Shown in pieces: positions 1 to 41,434 of a stretch of 64,000 nucleotides of DNA. A model generated the notes under the pieces. It saw nothing but the letters and a program-made list of their open reading frames with translations, was not told the origin of the DNA and did not search any database. The stretch is from Escherichia phage BF17. Numbering within the stretch: the stretch's first letter is position 1; each line of letters starts with the position of its first letter. Where the stretch lies: the sequence record MW822008.1, one strand, 5' to 3'. The position numbers and the translations under genes were made by a program.

Positions 1-75
1 ATTATTGAAGCTTTCAGTAAAGATGATATTTTGGCATTCATCGCTTCAGTAGAGGTTTCGAGCAACCCTAAATAA
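1..75 (+). CDS. 3' end of an upstream ORF (partial, last 24 codons)
   Basis: Open frame from window edge to TAA at 73-75; too short to assign function. Confidence 0.25.
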   Translation: MIEAFSKDDILAFIASVEVSSNPK

Positions 76-120
76 TAATGAAGAACACAAGTTCTTCGTA
101 ACAATTTGGGAGATACTATT

Positions 121-363
121 ATGCTCAGTTTTCGTGAACAATTAGCAAAAGGCCAATTCGCTGCTAAAGCTCAAACATCCATTCCTAAAAAGTCTGCTTT
201 CTTAGGGACGATTACAGAAGATGGTTATTGTGATTATGATGCACCAGAAGATTCATGGTACATTACGAAAGACACAAAACGTGGTAATAGACTTCACAAA
301 AGTACCATTGCTCGCAAACAACGAAAAGAATTGAAAAAAATTCGATTCGGTGAAGAAGAATAA
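121..363 (+). CDS. hypothetical protein
   Basis: ORF-track entry starts at TTG 106; ATG at 121 is preceded by GGGAGA; followed by hairpin terminator. Confidence 0.4.
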   Translation: MLSFREQLAKGQFAAKAQTSIPKKSAFLGTITEDGYCDYDAPEDSWYITKDTKRGNRLHKSTIARKQRKELKKIRFGEEE

Positions 364-374
364 AATATAAATTA

Positions 375-403
375 AGGACTCTGATTACAGAGTCCTTTCT
401 TTT
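375..403 (+). terminator. intrinsic terminator (hairpin AGGACTC/GAGTCCT + T-run)
   Basis: 7-bp inverted repeat followed by TTCTTTTC directly after stop at 363. Confidence 0.5.
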
Positions 404-414
404 CGGAGAATATA

Positions 415-891
415 ATGATACATGAACACCTAGGTAATTTGTTTGAATTATTCAACACTGTTACTGATGATCAAACCGCGTTGCATATAATCGCTCATGG
501 TTGTAATGCACAGGGTAAGATGGGTTCGGGTTTTGCAAAAGAACTAAGAAATCGTTATCCGATGGCATATGATGATTATAAAGCATATGAAAAGGAAATG
601 GGATTTCTAAGAACAGGACAAATTTCATATTCTTCTATAAGTGATGATTTGCTTATCGCAAACTGCATTACCCAAAAGTACTATGGTAATGACGGTTCTA
701 AGTATGTGAGTTATGATGCAATCGATGATGTTTTCAAACAACTCAATTACTTATGTAACGTTGAACGCACTGTTCATGTACACTTCCCGAAAATTGGAGC
801 CGATTTAGGCGGTGGTAACTGGAACGTTATCAAAGAAATCATTGACCACAGACTGGTTAATGCAGAAAAACACTTATACATTCTAAAATAA
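415..891 (+). CDS. macro-domain protein (TARG1/DarG-like ADP-ribose hydrolase fold)
   Basis: Motif AHGCNAQGKMGSGFA resembles TARG1-type AHCIS..MGAGIA; C-terminal FPKIGADLGGGNW resembles macro-domain FPAISTGVYGYP loop; GGAGAA RBS. Confidence 0.55.
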   Translation: MIHEHLGNLFELFNTVTDDQTALHIIAHGCNAQGKMGSGFAKELRNRYPMAYDDYKAYEKEMGFLRTGQISYSSISDDLLIANCITQKYYGNDGSKYVSYDAIDDVFKQLNYLCNVERTVHVHFPKIGADLGGGNWNVIKEIIDHRLVNAEKHLYILK

Positions 892-910
892 ACAAAAGGA
901 CTTGACAAAA

Positions 911-1219
911 ATGACTATGACCGTTAAACTACTAAACATCAACAGCGTTGGACCAGTACTAGCAATTCTACAAAATGATGCACCAGAAGCAGTAGTAGTT
1001 AACTACCCAGCACAGCTAGGTACTGACGAACAAGGTGAAATCATTCTACGTGATTACTTAGAATTCATTAGTTCTGAAAAAGGCGTTATTTTTTATAAAT
1101 CCAACATCATTAGTATCAGCGATGCAAACCCTGCACTAGTTGAAGCTTATGTTGAAGCAATCAAGGCAATCGAAGAAAAACCAGCACTGATTGTTCCTGA
1201 TAACAAAATCATCCTATAA
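911..1219 (+). CDS. hypothetical protein
   Basis: ORF track starts at TTG 902; first ATG at 911 with AAGGA RBS upstream. Confidence 0.4.
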   Translation: MTMTVKLLNINSVGPVLAILQNDAPEAVVVNYPAQLGTDEQGEIILRDYLEFISSEKGVIFYKSNIISISDANPALVEAYVEAIKAIEEKPALIVPDNKIIL

Positions 1220-1231
1220 TAGAGGTATCTA

Positions 1232-1609
1232 ATGGCTGCTCAAAACGTTAAAGTTAAAACTATCCAAGCTATTGTAGTACTGAAAGATTCTACTCCATCA
1301 CCAAAAGAACTGGTTATGGCTGGTATGACAATGCTACATCAGTACAATCCAGAATCACCTAACTATGTACTGGAATACGAAGCAAAGCAGTTTAAAGAAC
1401 ATTGGCAGTCATGGATTAAAGATAATGAAATGGAACAGGTTGTTTATGCTGCTGATGACATTTTCGAACTAGAACAAATCGAATATCTAGCAGGGCAACA
1501 ATCTGTACCATTGAGTAACTTCGGCAATGGGGAAGAAGTTTTAGTACTGGGACCATTTACCGCTGATGCCATCATGCACTTACTAAGTAATTGTAAAAAA
1601 GTTGGCTAA
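1232..1609 (+). CDS. hypothetical protein (weak PTH2-like pattern, unverified)
   Basis: 125-aa ORF with GAGGT RBS; C-terminal VLVLGPFTADAIMHLL loosely resembles peptidyl-tRNA hydrolase 2 C-terminus. Confidence 0.45.
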   Translation: MAAQNVKVKTIQAIVVLKDSTPSPKELVMAGMTMLHQYNPESPNYVLEYEAKQFKEHWQSWIKDNEMEQVVYAADDIFELEQIEYLAGQQSVPLSNFGNGEEVLVLGPFTADAIMHLLSNCKKVG

Positions 1610-1870
1610 AAAACAAATATTATCAGGTTACCGTAATAACACGTTGCACTACAATGACTTAAAGTACTGGGTTGACCCCCACAACAATAAGTCATTGTTG
1701 CTGTACAGAGATAAATTTCGAGATTTGTACGGTATATATGACACACAGTTAATATACTTAGTTGATACCGAACATTTTGCTCCTATAGTATACCTGTACT
1801 GCTTGTATAATTCCAAATAACTATTAGCACCTCTAAATAATGTATATAAACATTAATGAGGTGCTTTTTT

Positions 1871-2662
1871 ATGTCTTACGATTATATGGGTGGAAACCCA
1901 GATGCTCCAAACTTTGATCATCGTGAAAAACTGAAAGATGTTATCACTCAAATGTTAGGTGCTGGTGCAGTTGAAGTTGAAATTACTGATGGTCAATTGG
2001 AAATTGCGATTGATAATGCGGTATCAAACTACCGAGCATGGAGTTCTGCTTCAAAAGAAGAAGCATTCTTGAACATGAAATTCTATGATTCACAATCTGT
2101 ATACATGCTTCCTACTGAAGTTGAAATTGTTAAACAGATTTATCGTTATGGTAACGGTTATCTAAGTTCTGGTAGTGGTAACTCAGTTGACCCTTTTTCA
2201 CTTGCATTTACCAACACTTACCTTTTAACGTCTGCACGTAACGCTGGTGGTTATGACTTAACTACTTATGATTTTAGTTTTCAATTCCAAGAATTAGTTG
2301 GGCGTATGTTTGGTAGAGAAATCATCTTCCAGTTCAACCCAATGACCAAAAAACTAATAATTGATCGTGATATTCGCGGTACTGAAGAAGTGCTATTACA
2401 TGTATATCATAATATACCTGAACCATTGCTATTCCAACGTCAACAAAGCTATCCTTGGCTACGTGACTGGGCATTGTCTGAAGCTATGATTATGTTGGGT
2501 CGCAACCGTGCTAAATTTGCTACATTGCCTGGACCACAGGGTACATTCTCTATGGATGGTGATACATTACGTAATGAAGGTGCACAACTTCAAGAACAGC
2601 TTAAAGAACAGTTGAAGAGATACAAAGATGGTGGTGATCCACTTGGAATGATTATCGGATAA
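1871..2662 (+). CDS. hypothetical protein
   Basis: ATG at 1871 has GAGGTG RBS (ORF track begins at 1856); followed by strong terminator. Confidence 0.5.
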   Translation: MSYDYMGGNPDAPNFDHREKLKDVITQMLGAGAVEVEITDGQLEIAIDNAVSNYRAWSSASKEEAFLNMKFYDSQSVYMLPTEVEIVKQIYRYGNGYLSSGSGNSVDPFSLAFTNTYLLTSARNAGGYDLTTYDFSFQFQELVGRMFGREIIFQFNPMTKKLIIDRDIRGTEEVLLHVYHNIPEPLLFQRQQSYPWLRDWALSEAMIMLGRNRAKFATLPGPQGTFSMDGDTLRNEGAQLQEQLKEQLKRYKDGGDPLGMIIG

Positions 2663-2672
2663 AACAAAAAAA

Positions 2673-2698
2673 AGACTCCTATATGGGGTCTTTTTTTA
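2673..2698 (+). terminator. intrinsic terminator
   Basis: AGACTCC-TATAT-GGGGTCT hairpin followed by T7. Confidence 0.7.
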
Positions 2699-2702
2699 TA
2701 TG

Positions 2703-2714
2703 TTGTGATATAAT
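2703..2714 (+). promoter_or_regulatory. extended -10 element TGTGATATAAT
   Basis: Same 12-mer TGTGATATAATG as in promoters at 15043 and 44343; no clear -35. Confidence 0.4.
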
Positions 2715-2741
2715 GATAATATTAATCTAAAGGAACCTGAC

Positions 2742-3020
2742 ATGAATAACAACATAGATGTAATGTATGCAATGTATAACAAATATACTTGTGGAGCACC
2801 TACATTGGATTATGAATCAACCGAAAAGAACTGGAAATTTATAAAAGAATCAATCGTAGATGTTTTCGGTAGAGATCGAATAAACGCGTGGGCGAGTATA
2901 TGTCGTGATGATAATGGAGAAACATTCTACATCACTTATGTTACTATATATTATGGGAGCGAGTTTATAGTTGGATTACTTGAATGTTTAGTAGGAAAGG
3001 ATTTAGTAGTACTTATATAA
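2742..3020 (+). CDS. hypothetical protein
   Basis: 92-aa ORF with AAGGAA RBS. Confidence 0.4.
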   Translation: MNNNIDVMYAMYNKYTCGAPTLDYESTEKNWKFIKESIVDVFGRDRINAWASICRDDNGETFYITYVTIYYGSEFIVGLLECLVGKDLVVLI

Positions 3021-3038
3021 TATACATGGAGAAGTATT

Positions 3039-3665
3039 ATGGAAAGACAAATAATTGCAATTAACGGTACTATCGGTAGCGGCAAAGATACTTTTGGTGA
3101 AACTTTTATCAATAATGGTTACACAAGAATGTCATTTGCAACTAATCTTAAAGATTCAGTTGCTGCTATCTTTGGATGGGATCGTGAAATGCTTGAGGGT
3201 TCGACTAAGGAAAGTCGTAAACTCCGTGAAGAGCCAGACCAGTACTGGTGTGAGAAGTTGGGGCGTGATGATGTTTCCCCTCGTTGGGTATTACAGAATT
3301 ACGGTACTAATATTTTGCGTAAGTACTTTCATAATGATATTTGGGTCCATAGCTTAGAGAAGTCAATGCAATCTGTTGAAGGGAATATTATCATTACTGA
3401 CTGCCGATTTCCAAATGAACTAAAAATGATTCGTTCATTAAATGGTATTGTGATTGAAGTTCAGCGTACCCTCCCACACTGGTATGGTTTAGCAGCATCT
3501 TTTAATAAAGGTGATATTAGCATGAAACCAATTGAGTTAGAATCAGTTCATGAATCTGAATGGGCGTGGATTGGTATCAATAATCCTGATATCATTGTAC
3601 AAAATAATAGCACAATTGAAGCGTTGCACCAACAAGCATTGAGCGTTATTTATGCCAATAAGTGA
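3039..3665 (+). CDS. P-loop nucleotide kinase, dNMP-kinase-like (T4 gp1-like)
   Basis: N-terminal Walker A INGTIGSGKDT resembles T4 gp1 LSGVKRSGKDT; GGAGAAG RBS. Confidence 0.55.
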   Translation: MERQIIAINGTIGSGKDTFGETFINNGYTRMSFATNLKDSVAAIFGWDREMLEGSTKESRKLREEPDQYWCEKLGRDDVSPRWVLQNYGTNILRKYFHNDIWVHSLEKSMQSVEGNIIITDCRFPNELKMIRSLNGIVIEVQRTLPHWYGLAASFNKGDISMKPIELESVHESEWAWIGINNPDIIVQNNSTIEALHQQALSVIYANK

Positions 3666-3759
3666 AATTAAAACAATTAGGACTTGACATTCAAATCCTT
3701 CAATAAATAAGACTATACGAATATAATTCGAATAACCAATTATTTTTGGAGGATTTAAT

Positions 3760-6423
3760 ATGGCAGGAGATCTACTCTCACCTGGCGTTTCCATTTCAGT
3801 AACTGATGAAAGTATGAGTACTGCTGCTGCTCCTGGCACAGTACCACTATTTGTAATCGCTACTGCTGAAGACAAACTTGTTCCTGGTAGCAGTGCAATC
3901 GCTGCGGGAACCACTAAAGCAAACGCTGGTAAACTACAGCTACTAACATCACAGAAAAGCTCACTAGATACATTTGGCTCACCAATTTTCCAAATGAACA
4001 ATGGTTCAGTTGTTCAAGGTGACGAACTAAACGAATATGGTCTACATGCTGTATATTCTTATCTAGGCATCACCAACCGTGCATATGTTATTCGTGCTGA
4101 TATCGATTTAGCTCAACTATCACCAAGTGCAACTGCACCAACTGGTCCAGTACCAAATGGTACTCTATGGTTTGATGCTGCTCAATCACAAATTGAAGCT
4201 TATGTTGCTAAGAAAGACAGCCCAAGCAGCTTCTATGACTGGCAATTGAAGCCTGTTACCATCGTAAGTTCTGAAGAAGTTGACGATGTTAGCCTAGTTG
4301 GTCTAAACGTTGATGATCTAGTTCTACGTTATAAGCCAAGTAATGGTCAAATGCTTATGTACAAACGTGCAGCATCTGGTCTAGTACAGGTTGAAACTTA
4401 TCTATCACCAATCAACAAAGTTCCAGTTGGTTCAACTGTTGAACAAGGTAACGTATGGATTCGTGATGGTTATACTCAAAATGGTTCAAACTATTTTGGT
4501 ACTCGTTTTGTTCTAAAACGTTATGCATCTCTAACTCAAGTTTGGAATATCGTTCCAGCATATACTGGTAATTCTTTCCAAGAAGTTGAAGCTAAGAGTG
4601 GTGTACTAAACAACAGTTATATTGCTTGCCGTTTTGATGACGATAGTAAGAGTTTCTCTTTCTATATTCAAAGTGCAAAACTATCAGCAATTAGTGCTCC
4701 AGCAGTACCACTAGGTGAAACTGTTATTGAGCAAGCTGGTGAAGATAGTTATTTGACTTTCGCTTACCTAAACAAATCTGTTAAAGTACTTGCAGTACCA
4801 CAAGGTGGCGTAATTAATACTCAAACTATCATCGATAATCTAAATGTTAGTGCTGATCTTATCAATGATGGATTCAAATTCAAACGTGAATCTAATGGCG
4901 GTTTGGTAGTTACAAACACCAAAGGTTATAGCTTTAAAGTTACCCAAAGCGGTGATGATATTTTTGCAGCGAATGAACTAGCTAAACTAACTGTAGATAG
5001 TAACAACTATTCTCTAGTTAACGTTAATAACTTACGTGTTAGCTCTTCTGTTCCACGTAGTATTGCTAAAGACGGTACTATTTGGTATGATTTCGGTAAT
5101 TCCGATAACCTAACTGTTACCATGTACATTGCAGATGTTGCAAATGACGAATGGGATCTAGTACAAGAAGATAACAAATATGTTCAAGTTGATGAACCTG
5201 CGGCAGACCGTCTAATTTGGGTACGCCCTCTATCTCAAGGAATTGATGGTTATGATTTCTATCGTAACGTTGATGGTGAGTGGGTTAAACTAGACAATAC
5301 TGACCAAAGTACTCTAAACGGTATGATTTTCGCTGACTTTAACTTCCCTGAACAAGTTGCTTCTGCTGCTCTTTATCAGAATGGTATGCTTGCAATTGAC
5401 CTCGGTAATACCGAAGGTGTTGTTAAGAAAATGGTTAATGGTCAATGGCAAGTTGTTAGTGGTGTTAGTCTTGATGGTGCAGGTCTATTCGGTCGTGCAG
5501 CACAACGCAAACTAATCGTTGAAGCACTAGCTGCTGTAATCGTCGGTAATGATGATATCCGTTCTGAATTCATCGACTTCAACCTAATCTGTGTTCCTGG
5601 TTATGTAGAAACTCTAGATGAATGTATTACCCTAAACACTGATCGTAAAGAAACAGCGTTCATTGTAACTGATGTACCTGCTCGTTTGAACCCAACCGGA
5701 AACGGTAGTGCAGTTCAAGAATGGGCTACTAACGCGAATAACGCACCAAGTAATGGTTCAGTAGGCCGTACTTCTGCATATGATTATGCTGCTCAGTACA
5801 TGGGCTGGTGTCTAAGTACTAACGTTGATGGTGAAGAAGTAGCGGTTCCAGGCAGTACTGTTGCAATGCGTACCTATGCGTACAGTGATAGTGTTAGTTT
5901 TGTATGGTATCCACCTGCTGGTACTACTCGTGGTGTTGTAACCAATGCTGCAAGTACTGGTTTCATTAACAGTGAAGGTGAATATCAACCAGTAGTATAC
6001 AACCAAGGTCAACGTGACGTGATGTATACCAACAACATTAACCCAATTGCAATGCGTCCTAACCGTGGCTTGCTAGTATATGGTGATAAAACACTATCTG
6101 CTAACCAAACCTCTGCACTAAGCCGTGTTAACGTTGCTCGTTTGGTTGTTTACATTCGTCGTCAACTAGAAATCATCTCTGAACCATTCCTATTCCGTTT
6201 GAATACTCCAAGTACTCGTCAGGAATTCAGTGGTGTAGTGAATAGCTTCCTAGCTGAAATCGTTCAACAACAAGGTCTATATAACTTCGCAGTTGTTTGT
6301 GACGAAAGTAACAACACTTCTGAACGTATTGACCGTAATGAACTTTGGATGGATATTGCAATCCAACCTACTAAGTCTATCAACTTCATTTACGTACCTA
6401 TTCGTATTGAAAAGACTCAATAA
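3760..6423 (+). CDS. tail sheath protein
   Basis: 887 aa; N-terminus MAGDLLSPGVSISVTDES resembles T4 gp18 start LLSPGIELKE; followed by putative tube genes; GGAGG RBS. Confidence 0.75.
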   Translation: MAGDLLSPGVSISVTDESMSTAAAPGTVPLFVIATAEDKLVPGSSAIAAGTTKANAGKLQLLTSQKSSLDTFGSPIFQMNNGSVVQGDELNEYGLHAVYSYLGITNRAYVIRADIDLAQLSPSATAPTGPVPNGTLWFDAAQSQIEAYVAKKDSPSSFYDWQLKPVTIVSSEEVDDVSLVGLNVDDLVLRYKPSNGQMLMYKRAASGLVQVETYLSPINKVPVGSTVEQGNVWIRDGYTQNGSNYFGTRFVLKRYASLTQVWNIVPAYTGNSFQEVEAKSGVLNNSYIACRFDDDSKSFSFYIQSAKLSAISAPAVPLGETVIEQAGEDSYLTFAYLNKSVKVLAVPQGGVINTQTIIDNLNVSADLINDGFKFKRESNGGLVVTNTKGYSFKVTQSGDDIFAANELAKLTVDSNNYSLVNVNNLRVSSSVPRSIAKDGTIWYDFGNSDNLTVTMYIADVANDEWDLVQEDNKYVQVDEPAADRLIWVRPLSQGIDGYDFYRNVDGEWVKLDNTDQSTLNGMIFADFNFPEQVASAALYQNGMLAIDLGNTEGVVKKMVNGQWQVVSGVSLDGAGLFGRAAQRKLIVEALAAVIVGNDDIRSEFIDFNLICVPGYVETLDECITLNTDRKETAFIVTDVPARLNPTGNGSAVQEWATNANNAPSNGSVGRTSAYDYAAQYMGWCLSTNVDGEEVAVPGSTVAMRTYAYSDSVSFVWYPPAGTTRGVVTNAASTGFINSEGEYQPVVYNQGQRDVMYTNNINPIAMRPNRGLLVYGDKTLSANQTSALSRVNVARLVVYIRRQLEIISEPFLFRLNTPSTRQEFSGVVNSFLAEIVQQQGLYNFAVVCDESNNTSERIDRNELWMDIAIQPTKSINFIYVPIRIEKTQ

Positions 6424-40969: not shown

Positions 40970-41434
40970 TTAATATCGATATGGTAAGCTGTTGACAAAC
41001 TGTGTACCTTGACGTATACTTTCCCACAATGAATAAAAATCCTTCATTAAATTTGCGTTGAGTAATGTGTTTTTTGCACCAGGATGTAACGGTTTAGGCC
41101 ATGAGCCAATCTTAACCCATGCATAACCAGAACTCTCATGATTTAAAGTAGGTACGAATTCATTTTCAACTACAATGACAAATGAATAGTATTTAAATTT
41201 ACCATTCTTAGTGCAGAACACATCAAATGGTATAATATCTATTATCGTTGGAATAGAATCACCTAGTTCTTCTTTAATCTCACGCATAAGACCCTGTAAA
41301 GGAGTTTCATTATACTCAAGCTTCCCACCAACAAATGCCCAGTTGTTAGAATACGTACTTCTTTCTGATCTCAAGTTTAACATCATGTGTCCAGTACTTT
41401 TAGATAAAAATATAGCACCTACTGCTTCATTCAT
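40970..41434 (-). CDS. Nudix hydrolase
   Basis: Canonical Nudix box GGKLEYNETPLQGLMREIKEELG (G-x5-E-x7-REUxEExGU); AAGGAGG RBS. Confidence 0.8.
   Translation of the reverse strand: MNEAVGAIFLSKSTGHMMLNLRSERSTYSNNWAFVGGKLEYNETPLQGLMREIKEELGDSIPTIIDIIPFDVFCTKNGKFKYYSFVIVVENEFVPTLNHESSGYAWVKIGSWPKPLHPGAKNTLLNANLMKDFYSLWESIRQGTQFVNSLPYRY

Follow-up and report, generated by a model that had tools for sequence, protein, structure and literature searches.

Phage macrodomain factors that counter DarT2 (AdfM) have been shown for T4 (Tk.4) and PhiKZ (gp104), and T4 requires Tk.4 in order to plate on DarTG2 hosts (bioRxiv 10.1101/2025.11.20.689424). The cellular macrodomain protein SCO6735 of Streptomyces coelicolor strips DarT-made ADP-ribose from thymidine in ssDNA and rescues cells from DarT, and this activity depends on Gln85 (PMC9411070). 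A different function has been assigned to the macro protein Adpp of Vibrio phage Gary (KNV71_gp137), which is an ADP-ribose-1''-phosphate (ADPR-1''-P) phosphatase serving the NARP1 NAD+ pathway (aRES/Adpp preprint). Within the clade of macro proteins with a Gln in the core (Gln-type) that is described below, phage functions have been validated only for T4 AdfM and Gary Adpp. AdfM-type phage macro enzymes have been known since 2025-2026, and the macro protein of Escherichia phage BF17 adds another phage member to be compared with them. About 56% of jumbo phages reportedly encode a macro domain (PMC9503650).

The window analysed here is a stretch of 64,000 nucleotides of phage BF17 (MW822008.1), which is 99% identical to the Asteriusvirus jumbo coliphages vB_Ec-M-J and fEgEco12. 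It encodes a 158-aa macro protein close to its beginning (Table 1). A homologue search recovered 182 homologues at E<=1e-3, with identities ranging from 99% to about 40%, while a profile search gave 17,836 matches at E<=1e-3 (949 at E<=1e-30) among 1.84 billion representative proteins and tblastn matched 1,511 phage records. Because homologues are this numerous, the reading frame is a genuine gene and not a chance ORF. GenBank records of relatives already label it 'phosphatase' or 'macro domain', whereas the fEgEco12 genome paper makes no mention of it. Given these existing annotations and the frequency of macro domains in jumbo phages, the presence of the gene as such is unsurprising. The upstream hairpin ends the preceding small gene and lies 11 nt 5' of the macro ATG; a promoter scan found no sigma-70-like promoter between the hairpin and this ATG.

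Table 1. Positions of the macro gene, its upstream signals and its active-site segments in the window
Feature	Position	Strand	Basis
Terminator-like hairpin (10-bp stem, 4-nt loop, T-tract)	374..403	+	terminator scan
GGAG Shine-Dalgarno, 6 nt 5' of macro ATG	405..408	+	read from sequence
CDS of the 158-aa BF17 macro protein, stop codon included	415..891	+	ORF list, ATG start
Loop 1, residues 28-40, HGCNAQGKMGSGF	496..534	+	alignments
Core strand and extended mobile loop, residues 83-100, NCITQKYYGNDGSKYVSY	661..714	+	HMMER, MAFFT alignments
Loop 2, diphosphate-binding loop, residues 125-136, PKIGADLGGGNW	787..822	+	alignments

A first-pass annotation, made from the letters of the DNA, had described the product as a macro-domain protein related to TARG1 and DarG. 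As modelled by AlphaFold (AF2; pLDDT 95, pTM 0.91), the macro protein is a three-layer alpha/beta/alpha macro fold, which Foldseek matched to dozens of solved macrodomains with a probability of 1.0. TM-scores were 0.83 to BT1257 of Bacteroides thetaiotaomicron (2FG1/2AFC) and 0.75 to SCO6735 (5E3B), and the best viral structural match was the tk.4 protein of a T4-like phage (TMq 0.84). The best 17 Foldseek matches all belong to the ALC1-like class, and coronavirus and MacroD-type domains rank lower. When the family profile was searched against the PDB, it found only BT1257 (1.6e-26), SCO6735 (4.9e-20), Poa1p (4e-15), DarG of Mtb (3e-13) and Taq (1.4e-12), and TARG1 (1.5e-10). As these are its closest solved relatives, the macro protein belongs to the TARG1/DarG (ALC1-like) class, and both the domain and the kinship that had been proposed hold. 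BT1257 and SCO6735 are the best solved-structure matches (E 1e-15 and 3e-11 between them), and pairwise scores place the macro protein nearer to these two than to TARG1 or DarG. SCO6735 is its closest biochemically characterised relative (62 bits). Human TARG1/OARD1 (4J5S) shares fold and class (TM 0.75) with a pairwise score of 22 bits.

The macro protein matches PHROG_335 with an E-value of 4.5e-46, and T4 Tk.4 and PhiKZ gp104 are members of the same PHROG. Searched as a single sequence, it scored 20.2 bits against Pfam Macro (PF01661; cutoff 22, E 5.7e-4) over 115 of the 118 profile positions, whereas T4 Tk.4 scored 27.7 bits, above the cutoff; many close homologues of the BF17 protein carry a precomputed PF01661 match. 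With the PADLOC DarG model the macro protein obtained 39.4 bits and T4 AdfM 36 bits, which we count as equal, compared to 133 bits for PhiKZ gp104. For the NCBIfam DarG equivalog NF048014, whose cutoff is 250, the score was 33 bits, with the macro part alone being matched.

Both motifs cited in the first-pass annotation are present in the ORF, AHGCNAQGKMGSGFA as residues 27-41 and FPKIGADLGGGNW as residues 124-136 of the macro protein. Their likeness to TARG1 was maintained in the alignment, in which TARG1 'AHCISEDCRMGAGIA' (the sequence used is identical to PDB 2lgr/4j5q) is aligned to 'AHGCNAQGKMGSGFA' and TARG1 'PRIGCGLDRLQW' to 'PKIGADLGGGNW'. In loop 1, H28 and N31 match H24 and N27 of SCO6735, N22 of DarG and H24 of Adpp. 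Among 151 diverse relatives N31 is invariant (151/151), H28 is found in 149, and P125, G128, G134 and W136 in loop 2 are almost invariant. The site of TARG1 K84, DarG K80 and SCO6735 Q85 is occupied by Q87 (673-675), as seen in the HMMER alignment to 5e3b and with MAFFT; the SCO6735 numbering was verified via the 20-residue tag offset in 5E3B. Q87 is present in all 151 relatives, as are G91 and Y100, so that a Gln at this position is no sporadic loss. G132 stands at the site of TARG1 D125, and thus both residues of the TARG1 dyad (K84/D125) are absent, which the first-pass annotation had named as a ground for refuting its proposal. The missing Lys and Asp do not refute a macrodomain hydrolase, because SCO6735 has and needs Gln85, yet cleaves ADP-ribosylated thymidine DNA. 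As a ground for refutation, the absence of the dyad is therefore invalid.

The mobile loop that follows Q87 (Q87-Y100) is three residues longer in the alignment than that of TARG1 and DarG and one to two residues shorter than that of SCO6735 and BT1257. It carries the basic residues K88 and K96, position 96 being K or R in 116 of the 151 relatives, and SCO6735 and BT1257 likewise have a long mobile loop with a Lys. These two proteins also share with the macro protein the Gln at the TARG1 K84/DarG K80 site and the H-x-C-N and N-x-I-x-Q motifs. However, they are cellular whereas the macro protein is phage-borne, identity is 28-29%, and position 130 is Gly in both and Asp in the macro protein. 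Gly is typical of the wider family at this position (130/151 representatives). We considered whether D130 stands in for TARG1 D125 or marks a function, and rejected it as a discriminator: within its own clade the position is D, G, V, T, E or A, and validated enzymes have Gly.

In the phylogenetic tree, the macro protein, SCO6735, BT1257, T4 Tk.4 and Gary Adpp form one Gln-type clade with 100% bootstrap, and the Lys-type DarG and PhiKZ gp104 form a separate clade, also with 100% support. The branch order of the four Gln-type sub-clades has bootstrap values of only 12-27%. The present analysis shows that most phage macro proteins lie in the Gln-type clade with SCO6735 and not in the Lys-type DarG/PhiKZ clade. 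PhiKZ gp104 and the DarG macrodomain (5M31/5M3E/5M3I) agree with the macro protein in fold, in belonging to the ALC1-like class and in the conserved Asn (N31; N22 in DarG), and the substrate proposed for them and for the macro protein is the same, ADP-ribosylated thymidine in ssDNA. They are, however, Lys-type proteins with an FPTK motif containing K78/K80. DarG has in addition a C-terminal DarT-binding domain and an adjoining darT, and the macro protein has neither.

Two phage proteins in the Gln-type clade are of particular relevance for the function of the macro protein. T4 Tk.4 is, like the BF17 protein, a single-domain macro protein (155 aa) and is homologous to it (E 5e-12, 29% identity). 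The core reads NLYTQ in Tk.4 and NCITQ in the macro protein, N-x-x-T-Q being common to both. The post-Gln loop of Tk.4 is about seven residues shorter, and Tk.4 clusters with Felix-O1-like and NARP1-linked macro proteins outside the sub-clade of the BF17 protein. Gary Adpp is also a single-domain phage macro protein with the same His/Asn/Gln core, but its post-Gln loop is unlike that of the macro protein. T4 AdfM and Gary Adpp share 35% identity (77 bits), so that Gary Adpp is a closer relative of T4 AdfM than the BF17 protein is. Because these two are such close relatives, sequence alone is not a sufficient basis for assigning function within PHROG_335; with Gary Adpp in the same clade and nearer to T4 AdfM, AdfM and Adpp activities are inseparable in this way. 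The identity of the core residue (Gln or Lys) was rejected as a discriminator, as Gary Adpp and T4 AdfM both have the Gln core.

The reading that we favour, with moderate confidence, is that the macro protein is a stand-alone DarG-like DNA de-ADP-ribosylase of the AdfM type. A role against DarT had been put forward in the first-pass annotation and is the best-supported candidate, given that the homologous T4 Tk.4 is AdfM, although Adpp offers a second validated role within the clade. We infer the substrate and the anti-DarT2 phenotype of the macro protein, whereas for T4 Tk.4 the DarTG2 phenotype has been demonstrated. The enzyme would be an ADP-ribosyl glycohydrolase with a macro domain of the TARG1/DarG (ALC1-like) class, in the Gln-type form known from SCO6735. 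If this is correct, Asteriusvirus jumbo coliphages, which are under study as therapeutic candidates, have a built-in DarTG2 resistance, and knowing this would help to predict their host range.

For the catalytic details we infer from SCO6735 mutagenesis and molecular dynamics how the macro protein may work. The thymine-linked ADP-ribose of single-stranded phage DNA would be held between loop 1 (H28-G-C-N31...G39) and loop 2 (P125...G134-N-W136). Q87 would position the distal ribose, and the catalytic water may be held by the backbone at G29, as has been proposed for Q85 and V25 of SCO6735. The extended loop from Q87 to Y100, with K88 and K96, might aid in holding the DNA. Cleavage of the N-glycosidic bond would then release free ADP-ribose and leave the DNA intact. 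During infection E. coli DarTG2 would fire and DarT2 would ADP-ribosylate the replicating phage DNA; the macro enzyme would remove these marks so that replication goes on, the protein acting as an orphan DarG-like antitoxin.

Several observations count against the AdfM reading. Identity to T4 Tk.4 is only 29%, and to SCO6735 28%. The DNA-activity residue K34 of SCO6735 corresponds to S38 in the macro protein, and the net charge is -4 compared to +7 for SCO6735. The conserved jumbo-phage neighbours are translation/tRNA genes and a NUDIX gene rather than DNA replication genes. Finally, Gary Adpp, a validated phosphatase, shares the Gln-type clade.

This last point leads to the question whether the macro protein could be an Adpp-type phosphatase, converting the ADPR-1''-P made by RES-domain NAD+ phosphorylases (aRES defence) to ADPR. 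We regard this as rather unlikely. Besides the common clade, the function-essential H24 of Adpp corresponds to the conserved H28, 'phosphatase' is a database label of the macro gene, and aRES systems are present in E. coli and Klebsiella. Moreover, among the proteins nearest to it beyond its own clade are the NARP1-linked macro proteins of Vibrio phages RYC (82 bits) and 1.063.O (77 bits), which share the QxYYGYD loop and D130. A macro gene of the Gary Adpp kind is carried by 15% of NARP1 operons (aRES/Adpp preprint). The gene of Gary Adpp itself lies between Adps and Namat, and Adps-Namat-macro linkage is seen in Acinetobacter and Pakpunavirus phages. However, the Adpp pathway exists to supply ADPR to Adps and Namat, and both are absent from the BF17-type phage: none was found within 6 kb on either side of the macro gene, nor annotated genome-wide in a near-identical genome. 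A tblastn search of that genome, using two queries each for Adps and Namat, gave a best E-value of 0.55, compared to 2e-12 for the macro positive control. Since neither gene turned up in the near-identical genome, we ranked the Adpp role lower. The Namat query would also pick up a Nampt-type gene, which makes a NARP2-type route unlikely as well. T4 is not known to encode NARP1 either. In addition, phages of Escherichia or Klebsiella are missing from the published table of NARP1-linked macro proteins, the validated Gary Adpp is only 25% identical (31 bits), and both core sites differ in the functional prototype Poa1p, which has Cys instead of N83 and Ser instead of Q87.

The genomic neighbourhood raises further alternatives. 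In Rak2-like jumbo phages the macro gene is part of a conserved block of a ribosome hibernation factor, a CCA-adding enzyme, NUDIX, glutaredoxin, in some cases YqeY, the macro protein and a PTH2-like hydrolase. The BF17-type gene is flanked by small hypothetical proteins, NUDIX, glutaredoxin and a PTH2-like protein; a Pfam search of the small neighbours at 106-363, 902-1219, 1232-1609 and 1602-1820 gave no match. It is rather unlikely that the long-loop sub-clade is not a DNA-directed AdfM but part of a translation-protection module removing ADP-ribose from tRNA or other RNA. Such a module, if true, would imply an undescribed host defence that reversibly ADP-ribosylates RNA bases. In a milder and likewise rather unlikely version of this reading, phage macrodomains of the Gln type would as a rule be bifunctional and act on ADP-ribosylated DNA as well as on ADPR-1''-P; AdfM and Adpp would then be two names for one enzyme found in two genomic settings.

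We consider it unlikely that the macro protein strips ADP-ribose from tRNA, rRNA or mRNA within a translation-maintenance cluster, against an RNA-targeting ADP-ribosyltransferase. SCO6735, TARG1 and DarG also cleave uracil-linked ADP-ribose in ssRNA (PMC13036486). The translation-related genes (S30AE/HPF, CCA-adding enzyme, YqeY, PTH2-like hydrolase) surround the macro gene in Rak2-like phages from E. coli to Xanthomonas. This synteny is, however, limited to one phage lineage and may represent inherited gene order; elsewhere, genes for DNA metabolism or anti-defence are found next to the macro gene. In a T5-like phage, for instance, a member of the same sub-clade adjoins HD_4, cpYpsA and Gad2, and in a small phage the adjoining genes are ERF and DnaB; this proximity to counter-defence or DNA-replication genes also speaks for the AdfM reading. 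CmdT, the RNA-base system that is known, has adenine as its target, and its modification has been described as irreversible. A bacterial defence acting by ADP-ribosylation of uracil in RNA is not known, which also counts against an RNA target.

Improbable, too, is a service to NAD+-consuming enzymes of the phage itself, in which the macro protein would deacylate Sir2-made O-acetyl-ADP-ribose or reverse Sir2-type ADP-ribosylation and NUDIX would clear the ADPR. The phage does have a genuine SIR2-family gene, directly followed by a Nudt16-like NUDIX gene, and a NUDIX-glutaredoxin pair is located three genes upstream of the macro gene, in an order (NUDIX-Grx-macro) that persists even in jumbo relatives with no more than 45-49% identity. 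The Sir2 gene, however, lies about 36 kb away, the flanks sampled in T5-like and small phages, whose macro genes fall in the same sub-clade, contain no NUDIX or Sir2, and such a role is known for no validated member of the Gln-type clade. It is highly unlikely that the macro protein is a non-catalytic sponge that binds immune signals derived from ADP-ribose, for example Thoeris His-ADPR or gcADPR; signals derived from ADP-ribose had also been raised as a target in the first-pass annotation. Macro domains do bind derivatives of ADPR, and the Thoeris II effector uses one to sense His-ADPR. However, H28, N31 and Q87, whose counterparts in relatives have been shown to be catalytic or essential, vary little or not at all across 151 diverse family members, the pattern expected of an enzyme, and all characterised Gln-type clade members are hydrolases.

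No NADAR (AdfN) or Alt-type ADP-ribosyltransferase companion of the macro gene was found by tblastn with T4 queries, a search of low sensitivity for families so divergent. The macrodomain mentioned in a preprint on Pseudomonas Migulavirinae phages is the ThsA effector of the host and not a phage macro protein.

The coding sequence of the macro protein appeared in the ORF list with the coordinates, strand and length given by the first-pass annotation, and both motifs quoted there were present in the protein. It is preceded by a hairpin with a perfect 10-bp stem and a T-tract, only 11 nt upstream of the start codon, and the promoter scan found no sigma-70-like promoter between hairpin and ATG. 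The octamer TATAAATT is similar to the T4 late-promoter consensus TATAAATA. The window is 99% identical to the Escherichia jumbo phages WPEC5, EC.P1, fEgEco12 and vB_Ec-M-J (genus Asteriusvirus, 350-385 kb), in whose records the gene is labelled 'phosphatase', 'macro domain-containing protein' or 'Appr-1-p processing domain protein'. A protein homology search returned 182 homologues (99% to ~40% identity), 1,511 phage genome records had a tblastn match, and, of 1.84 billion representative proteins searched with a profile, 17,836 scored at E<=1e-3, 949 of them at E<=1e-30. The ORF is a real, conserved gene. Finding it here is ordinary, because it is annotated in the relatives and ~56% of jumbo phages carry macro domains in a published survey (PMC9503650); the protein adds to a kind already known, which public records label as macro domain.

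Features of the macro gene, its surroundings and related loci
Feature	Position	Strand	Remarks
Macro protein CDS	window 415-891	+	ATG start, 158 aa (ORF list)
Ribosome-binding site GGAG	6 nt upstream of ATG	+	read from sequence
Strong terminator-like hairpin	window 374-397; 374-403 with T-tract	+	closes preceding small gene (terminator scan)
Late-promoter-like octamer	window 366-373
Diphosphate-binding loop	window 787-822		residues 125-136
Conserved gene block	window 1-6423; L001:1-6000 (fEgEco12, upstream)
MutT/NUDIX ORF	window 40970-41434	-	154 aa
SIR2-family and NUDIX genes	vB_Ec-M-J 87,169-88,385 (L010:37169-38385)		outside window
RCC1-like tandem family	vB_Ec-M-J 333-351 kb (L016:3206-20767)	-	outside window
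T4 tk.4	L002:6926-7390
LinBro homologue	L006:3977-4762		261 aa
Macro homologue of T5-like contig	L017:5414-7500

The Pfam Macro model was covered over nearly its whole length at 20.2 bits, just under the curated cutoff of 22, and PHROG_335 ('phosphatase') matched with an E-value of 4.5e-46. The AlphaFold2 model, with 49 homologues as input, was very confident (pLDDT 95, pTM 0.91). In Foldseek searches of the PDB the best match was BT1257 (2FG1, TM 0.83), followed by SCO6735, Poa1p, DarG and TARG1, with coronavirus and MacroD-type domains behind these. The family sequence profile matched only BT1257 (1.6e-26), SCO6735 (4.9e-20), Poa1p (4e-15), Mtb DarG (3e-13), Taq DarG (1.4e-12) and TARG1 (1.5e-10) in the PDB. 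These results place the protein among the macrodomains of the TARG1/DarG (ALC1-like) class, as the first-pass annotation had guessed. Among viral structures, tk.4 of a T4-like phage matched best, with a TMq of 0.84. DarG models scored the protein much like T4 Tk.4 (PADLOC, 39 vs 36 bits; NCBIfam, 33 vs 30 bits, against an equivalog cutoff of 250) and matched in their macro part only; it is therefore an orphan DarG-like macrodomain and not a DarG.

To compare active sites, the protein was aligned with TARG1 (sequence checked as identical to PDB entries), with T4 Tk.4 and PhiKZ gp104, and with DarG, SCO6735, BT1257 and Poa1p, whose sequences were extracted from alignments. The first-pass annotation had assumed the catalytic Lys and Asp of TARG1 and took their absence as refuting its proposal. 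Both are replaced: Gln87 aligns with TARG1 Lys84 and DarG Lys80, and Gly132 with TARG1 Asp125. This is no refutation and the criterion itself was wrong, because SCO6735 has Gln85 at this site, is left without any activity by mutation of this residue, efficiently removes DarT-made ADP-ribose from thymidine in ssDNA, and relieves E. coli and Streptomyces of DarT toxicity (PMC9411070). That Q87 aligns with Gln85 was confirmed by checking the 20-residue tag offset in chain 5E3B against the published SCO6735 numbering (H24, N27, K34, K89). Among the macro protein and 150 representatives sharing <=50% pairwise identity (n=151), N31, G39, Q87, G91 and Y100 were invariant and H28 was kept in 149, a pattern typical of an active enzyme. 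Both core positions are different in Poa1p (Cys for N83, Ser for Q87). Two weak points of the AdfM-type reading given below are that Lys34 of SCO6735 is not conserved (S38 here) and that the macro protein, unlike SCO6735, is net acidic. Asp130 lies in the diphosphate-binding loop, where 130 of the 151 diverse relatives have Gly.

Two functions have been demonstrated for phage macrodomains. As anti-DarT factors (AdfM), PhiKZ gp104 strips the DarT2-made ADP-ribose mark from DNA and shields chimalliviruses from DarTG2 (PMC13309987), and T4 Tk.4 is needed for growth on DarTG2 hosts, as seen by transposon sequencing (bioRxiv 10.1101/2025.11.20.689424). The second function is that of Adpp, the macro protein of Vibrio phage Gary, whose gene lies between those for Adps and Namat: it removes the phosphate of ADPR-1''-phosphate, which RES domains produce by phosphorolysis of NAD+, and so lets the NARP1 pathway rebuild NAD+ (bioRxiv 10.64898/2026.01.28.702374). 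The macro protein, Tk.4 and gp104 all belong to PHROG_335. A simple neighbour-joining distance tree (155 columns, 100 bootstraps) split the class into two clades with 100% support each: a Lys-type clade with the DarG proteins and gp104, and a Gln-type clade with the macro protein, Tk.4, Gary Adpp, all other sampled NARP1-linked macros, BT1257 and SCO6735. In PHROG_335 the phage macrodomains thus fall into two lineages of very unequal size, Lys-type (DarG/PhiKZ) and, by far the larger, Gln-type (SCO6735-like). The macro protein's own sub-clade (70% support) holds Rak2-like jumbo phages, one T5-like phage and one small phage; Tk.4 and Gary Adpp fall together in another, and the branching order of these sub-clades has bootstraps of only 12-27%. 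Position 130 varies (D/G/V/T/E/A) inside the own clade, and Asp130 is common to many jumbo-phage relatives, the NARP1-linked Vibrio RYC and 1.063.O macros and Barbavirus. Pairwise scores were 83 bits with the Barbavirus macro, 82 with that of RYC, 75 with BT1257, 62 with SCO6735, 47 with Tk.4, 43 with Taq DarG, 31 with Gary Adpp, 30 with gp104 and 22 with TARG1; identity to validated enzymes is 25-29%. The best matches of Tk.4 are NARP1-linked macros, Gary Adpp among them with 35% identity and 77 bits. Because AdfM and Adpp are names now given to closely related proteins, sequence by itself does not suffice to assign either function. T4 AdfM, shown genetically, and Gary Adpp, shown biochemically, may represent one bifunctional enzyme family. 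The two have 'H-x-C-N-C-F..M-G-x-G' and 'N-x-Y-x-Q' motifs in common (Gary Adpp from Table S1).

We give about an even chance to the macro protein being a stand-alone Gln-type ADP-ribosyl glycohydrolase, an AdfM-type orphan antitoxin that would clear DarT2-made ADP-ribose from phage ssDNA thymidines. By analogy with SCO6735, Q87 would position the distal ribose, catalysis would proceed by a water held on the G29 backbone, and an extended Lys-bearing loop could help to hold the DNA. Class and leading hypothesis of the first-pass annotation thus stand; its catalytic residues do not, and it left out Adpp. Within the own sub-clade, the macro gene adjoins HD_4, cpYpsA and Gad2 (anti-Gabija) in the T5-like phage, and an ERF recombinase and DnaB helicase in the small phage, settings compatible with a counter-defence or DNA-directed role.

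It is unlikely that the macro protein is instead an Adpp-type ADPR-1''-phosphate phosphatase, a role that makes sense only with Adps and Namat, even if the protein may have the activity itself. Over its whole length, the near-identical vB_Ec-M-J genome has no gene annotated as either of the two, and tblastn with Adps and Namat queries from two phages against the window and all genome pieces gave a best E-value of 0.55 (macro positive control, 2e-12). A Nampt-type NARP2 gene, which this search would also have picked up, was not found. T4 likewise is not known to encode such partners. The published table of NARP1-linked macros contains no Escherichia or Klebsiella phage (bioRxiv 10.64898/2026.01.28.702374), and the Adpp role is therefore without its partners in this phage. 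The macro-Adps-Namat linkage is present in one Acinetobacter phage and one Pakpunavirus and absent in Felixounavirus and Barbavirus.

The gene block around the macro gene is shared by Rak2-like jumbo phages whose hosts range from E. coli to Xanthomonas (macro protein identity 45-49%), as seen in the window, in fEgEco12 and in the jumbo-phage relatives L021 and L024. Its order is lysozyme, S30AE/ribosome hibernation factor, CCA-adding tRNA nucleotidyltransferase, NUDIX, glutaredoxin, YqeY (XaC1), small ORFs and macro, followed by small ORFs, PTH2-like hydrolase, gp13-like neck protein, dNMP kinase and tail sheath. Every jumbo relative has a NUDIX-glutaredoxin pair (fused in one relative) a short way upstream of the macro gene, and the phage encodes a genuine SIR2 protein with a Nudt16-like NUDIX next in line; both would suit a macro protein that works with the phage's Sir2 and NUDIX enzymes, for example as an O-acetyl-ADPR deacylase, a reading that we consider quite unlikely. 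We are equally sceptical of an RNA de-ADP-ribosylation enzyme, for which the series of translation and tRNA genes flanking macro and NUDIX would speak; the idea is made plausible by SCO6735, TARG1 and DarG, since U-ADPr in RNA is a substrate of all three as well (PMC13036486). A non-catalytic sponge for ADPR-derived signals is very improbable, given the invariant catalytic residues.

Several other loci were recorded. In the LinBro homologue (Felixounavirus) only the N-terminal ~150 residues form the macro domain, and the C-terminal ~110 are uncharacterised. In the metagenomic T5-like contig the homologue (43% identity) lies between the HD_4 (RelA/SpoT-type HD) and Gad2 genes, with the SLOG-family cpYpsA gene nearby, and these surroundings look like a counter-defence islet. 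The vB_Ec-M-J SIR2 protein matches PF02146 (E 3.7e-14), and the Nudt16-like hydrolase gene (PF22327, E 1.5e-18) follows directly with overlapping stop and start codons; the pair looks like a two-gene NAD+/ADP-ribose module. The phage's third NUDIX gene, annotated as MutT/NUDIX hydrolase in vB_Ec-M-J (EcMJ_313), sits there among tail/virion structural genes, adjoining a second 'tail sheath protein' gene. Finally, 14 consecutive paralogues of ~370-395 aa each, all annotated 'regulator of chromosome condensation', form a striking tandem family in vB_Ec-M-J.
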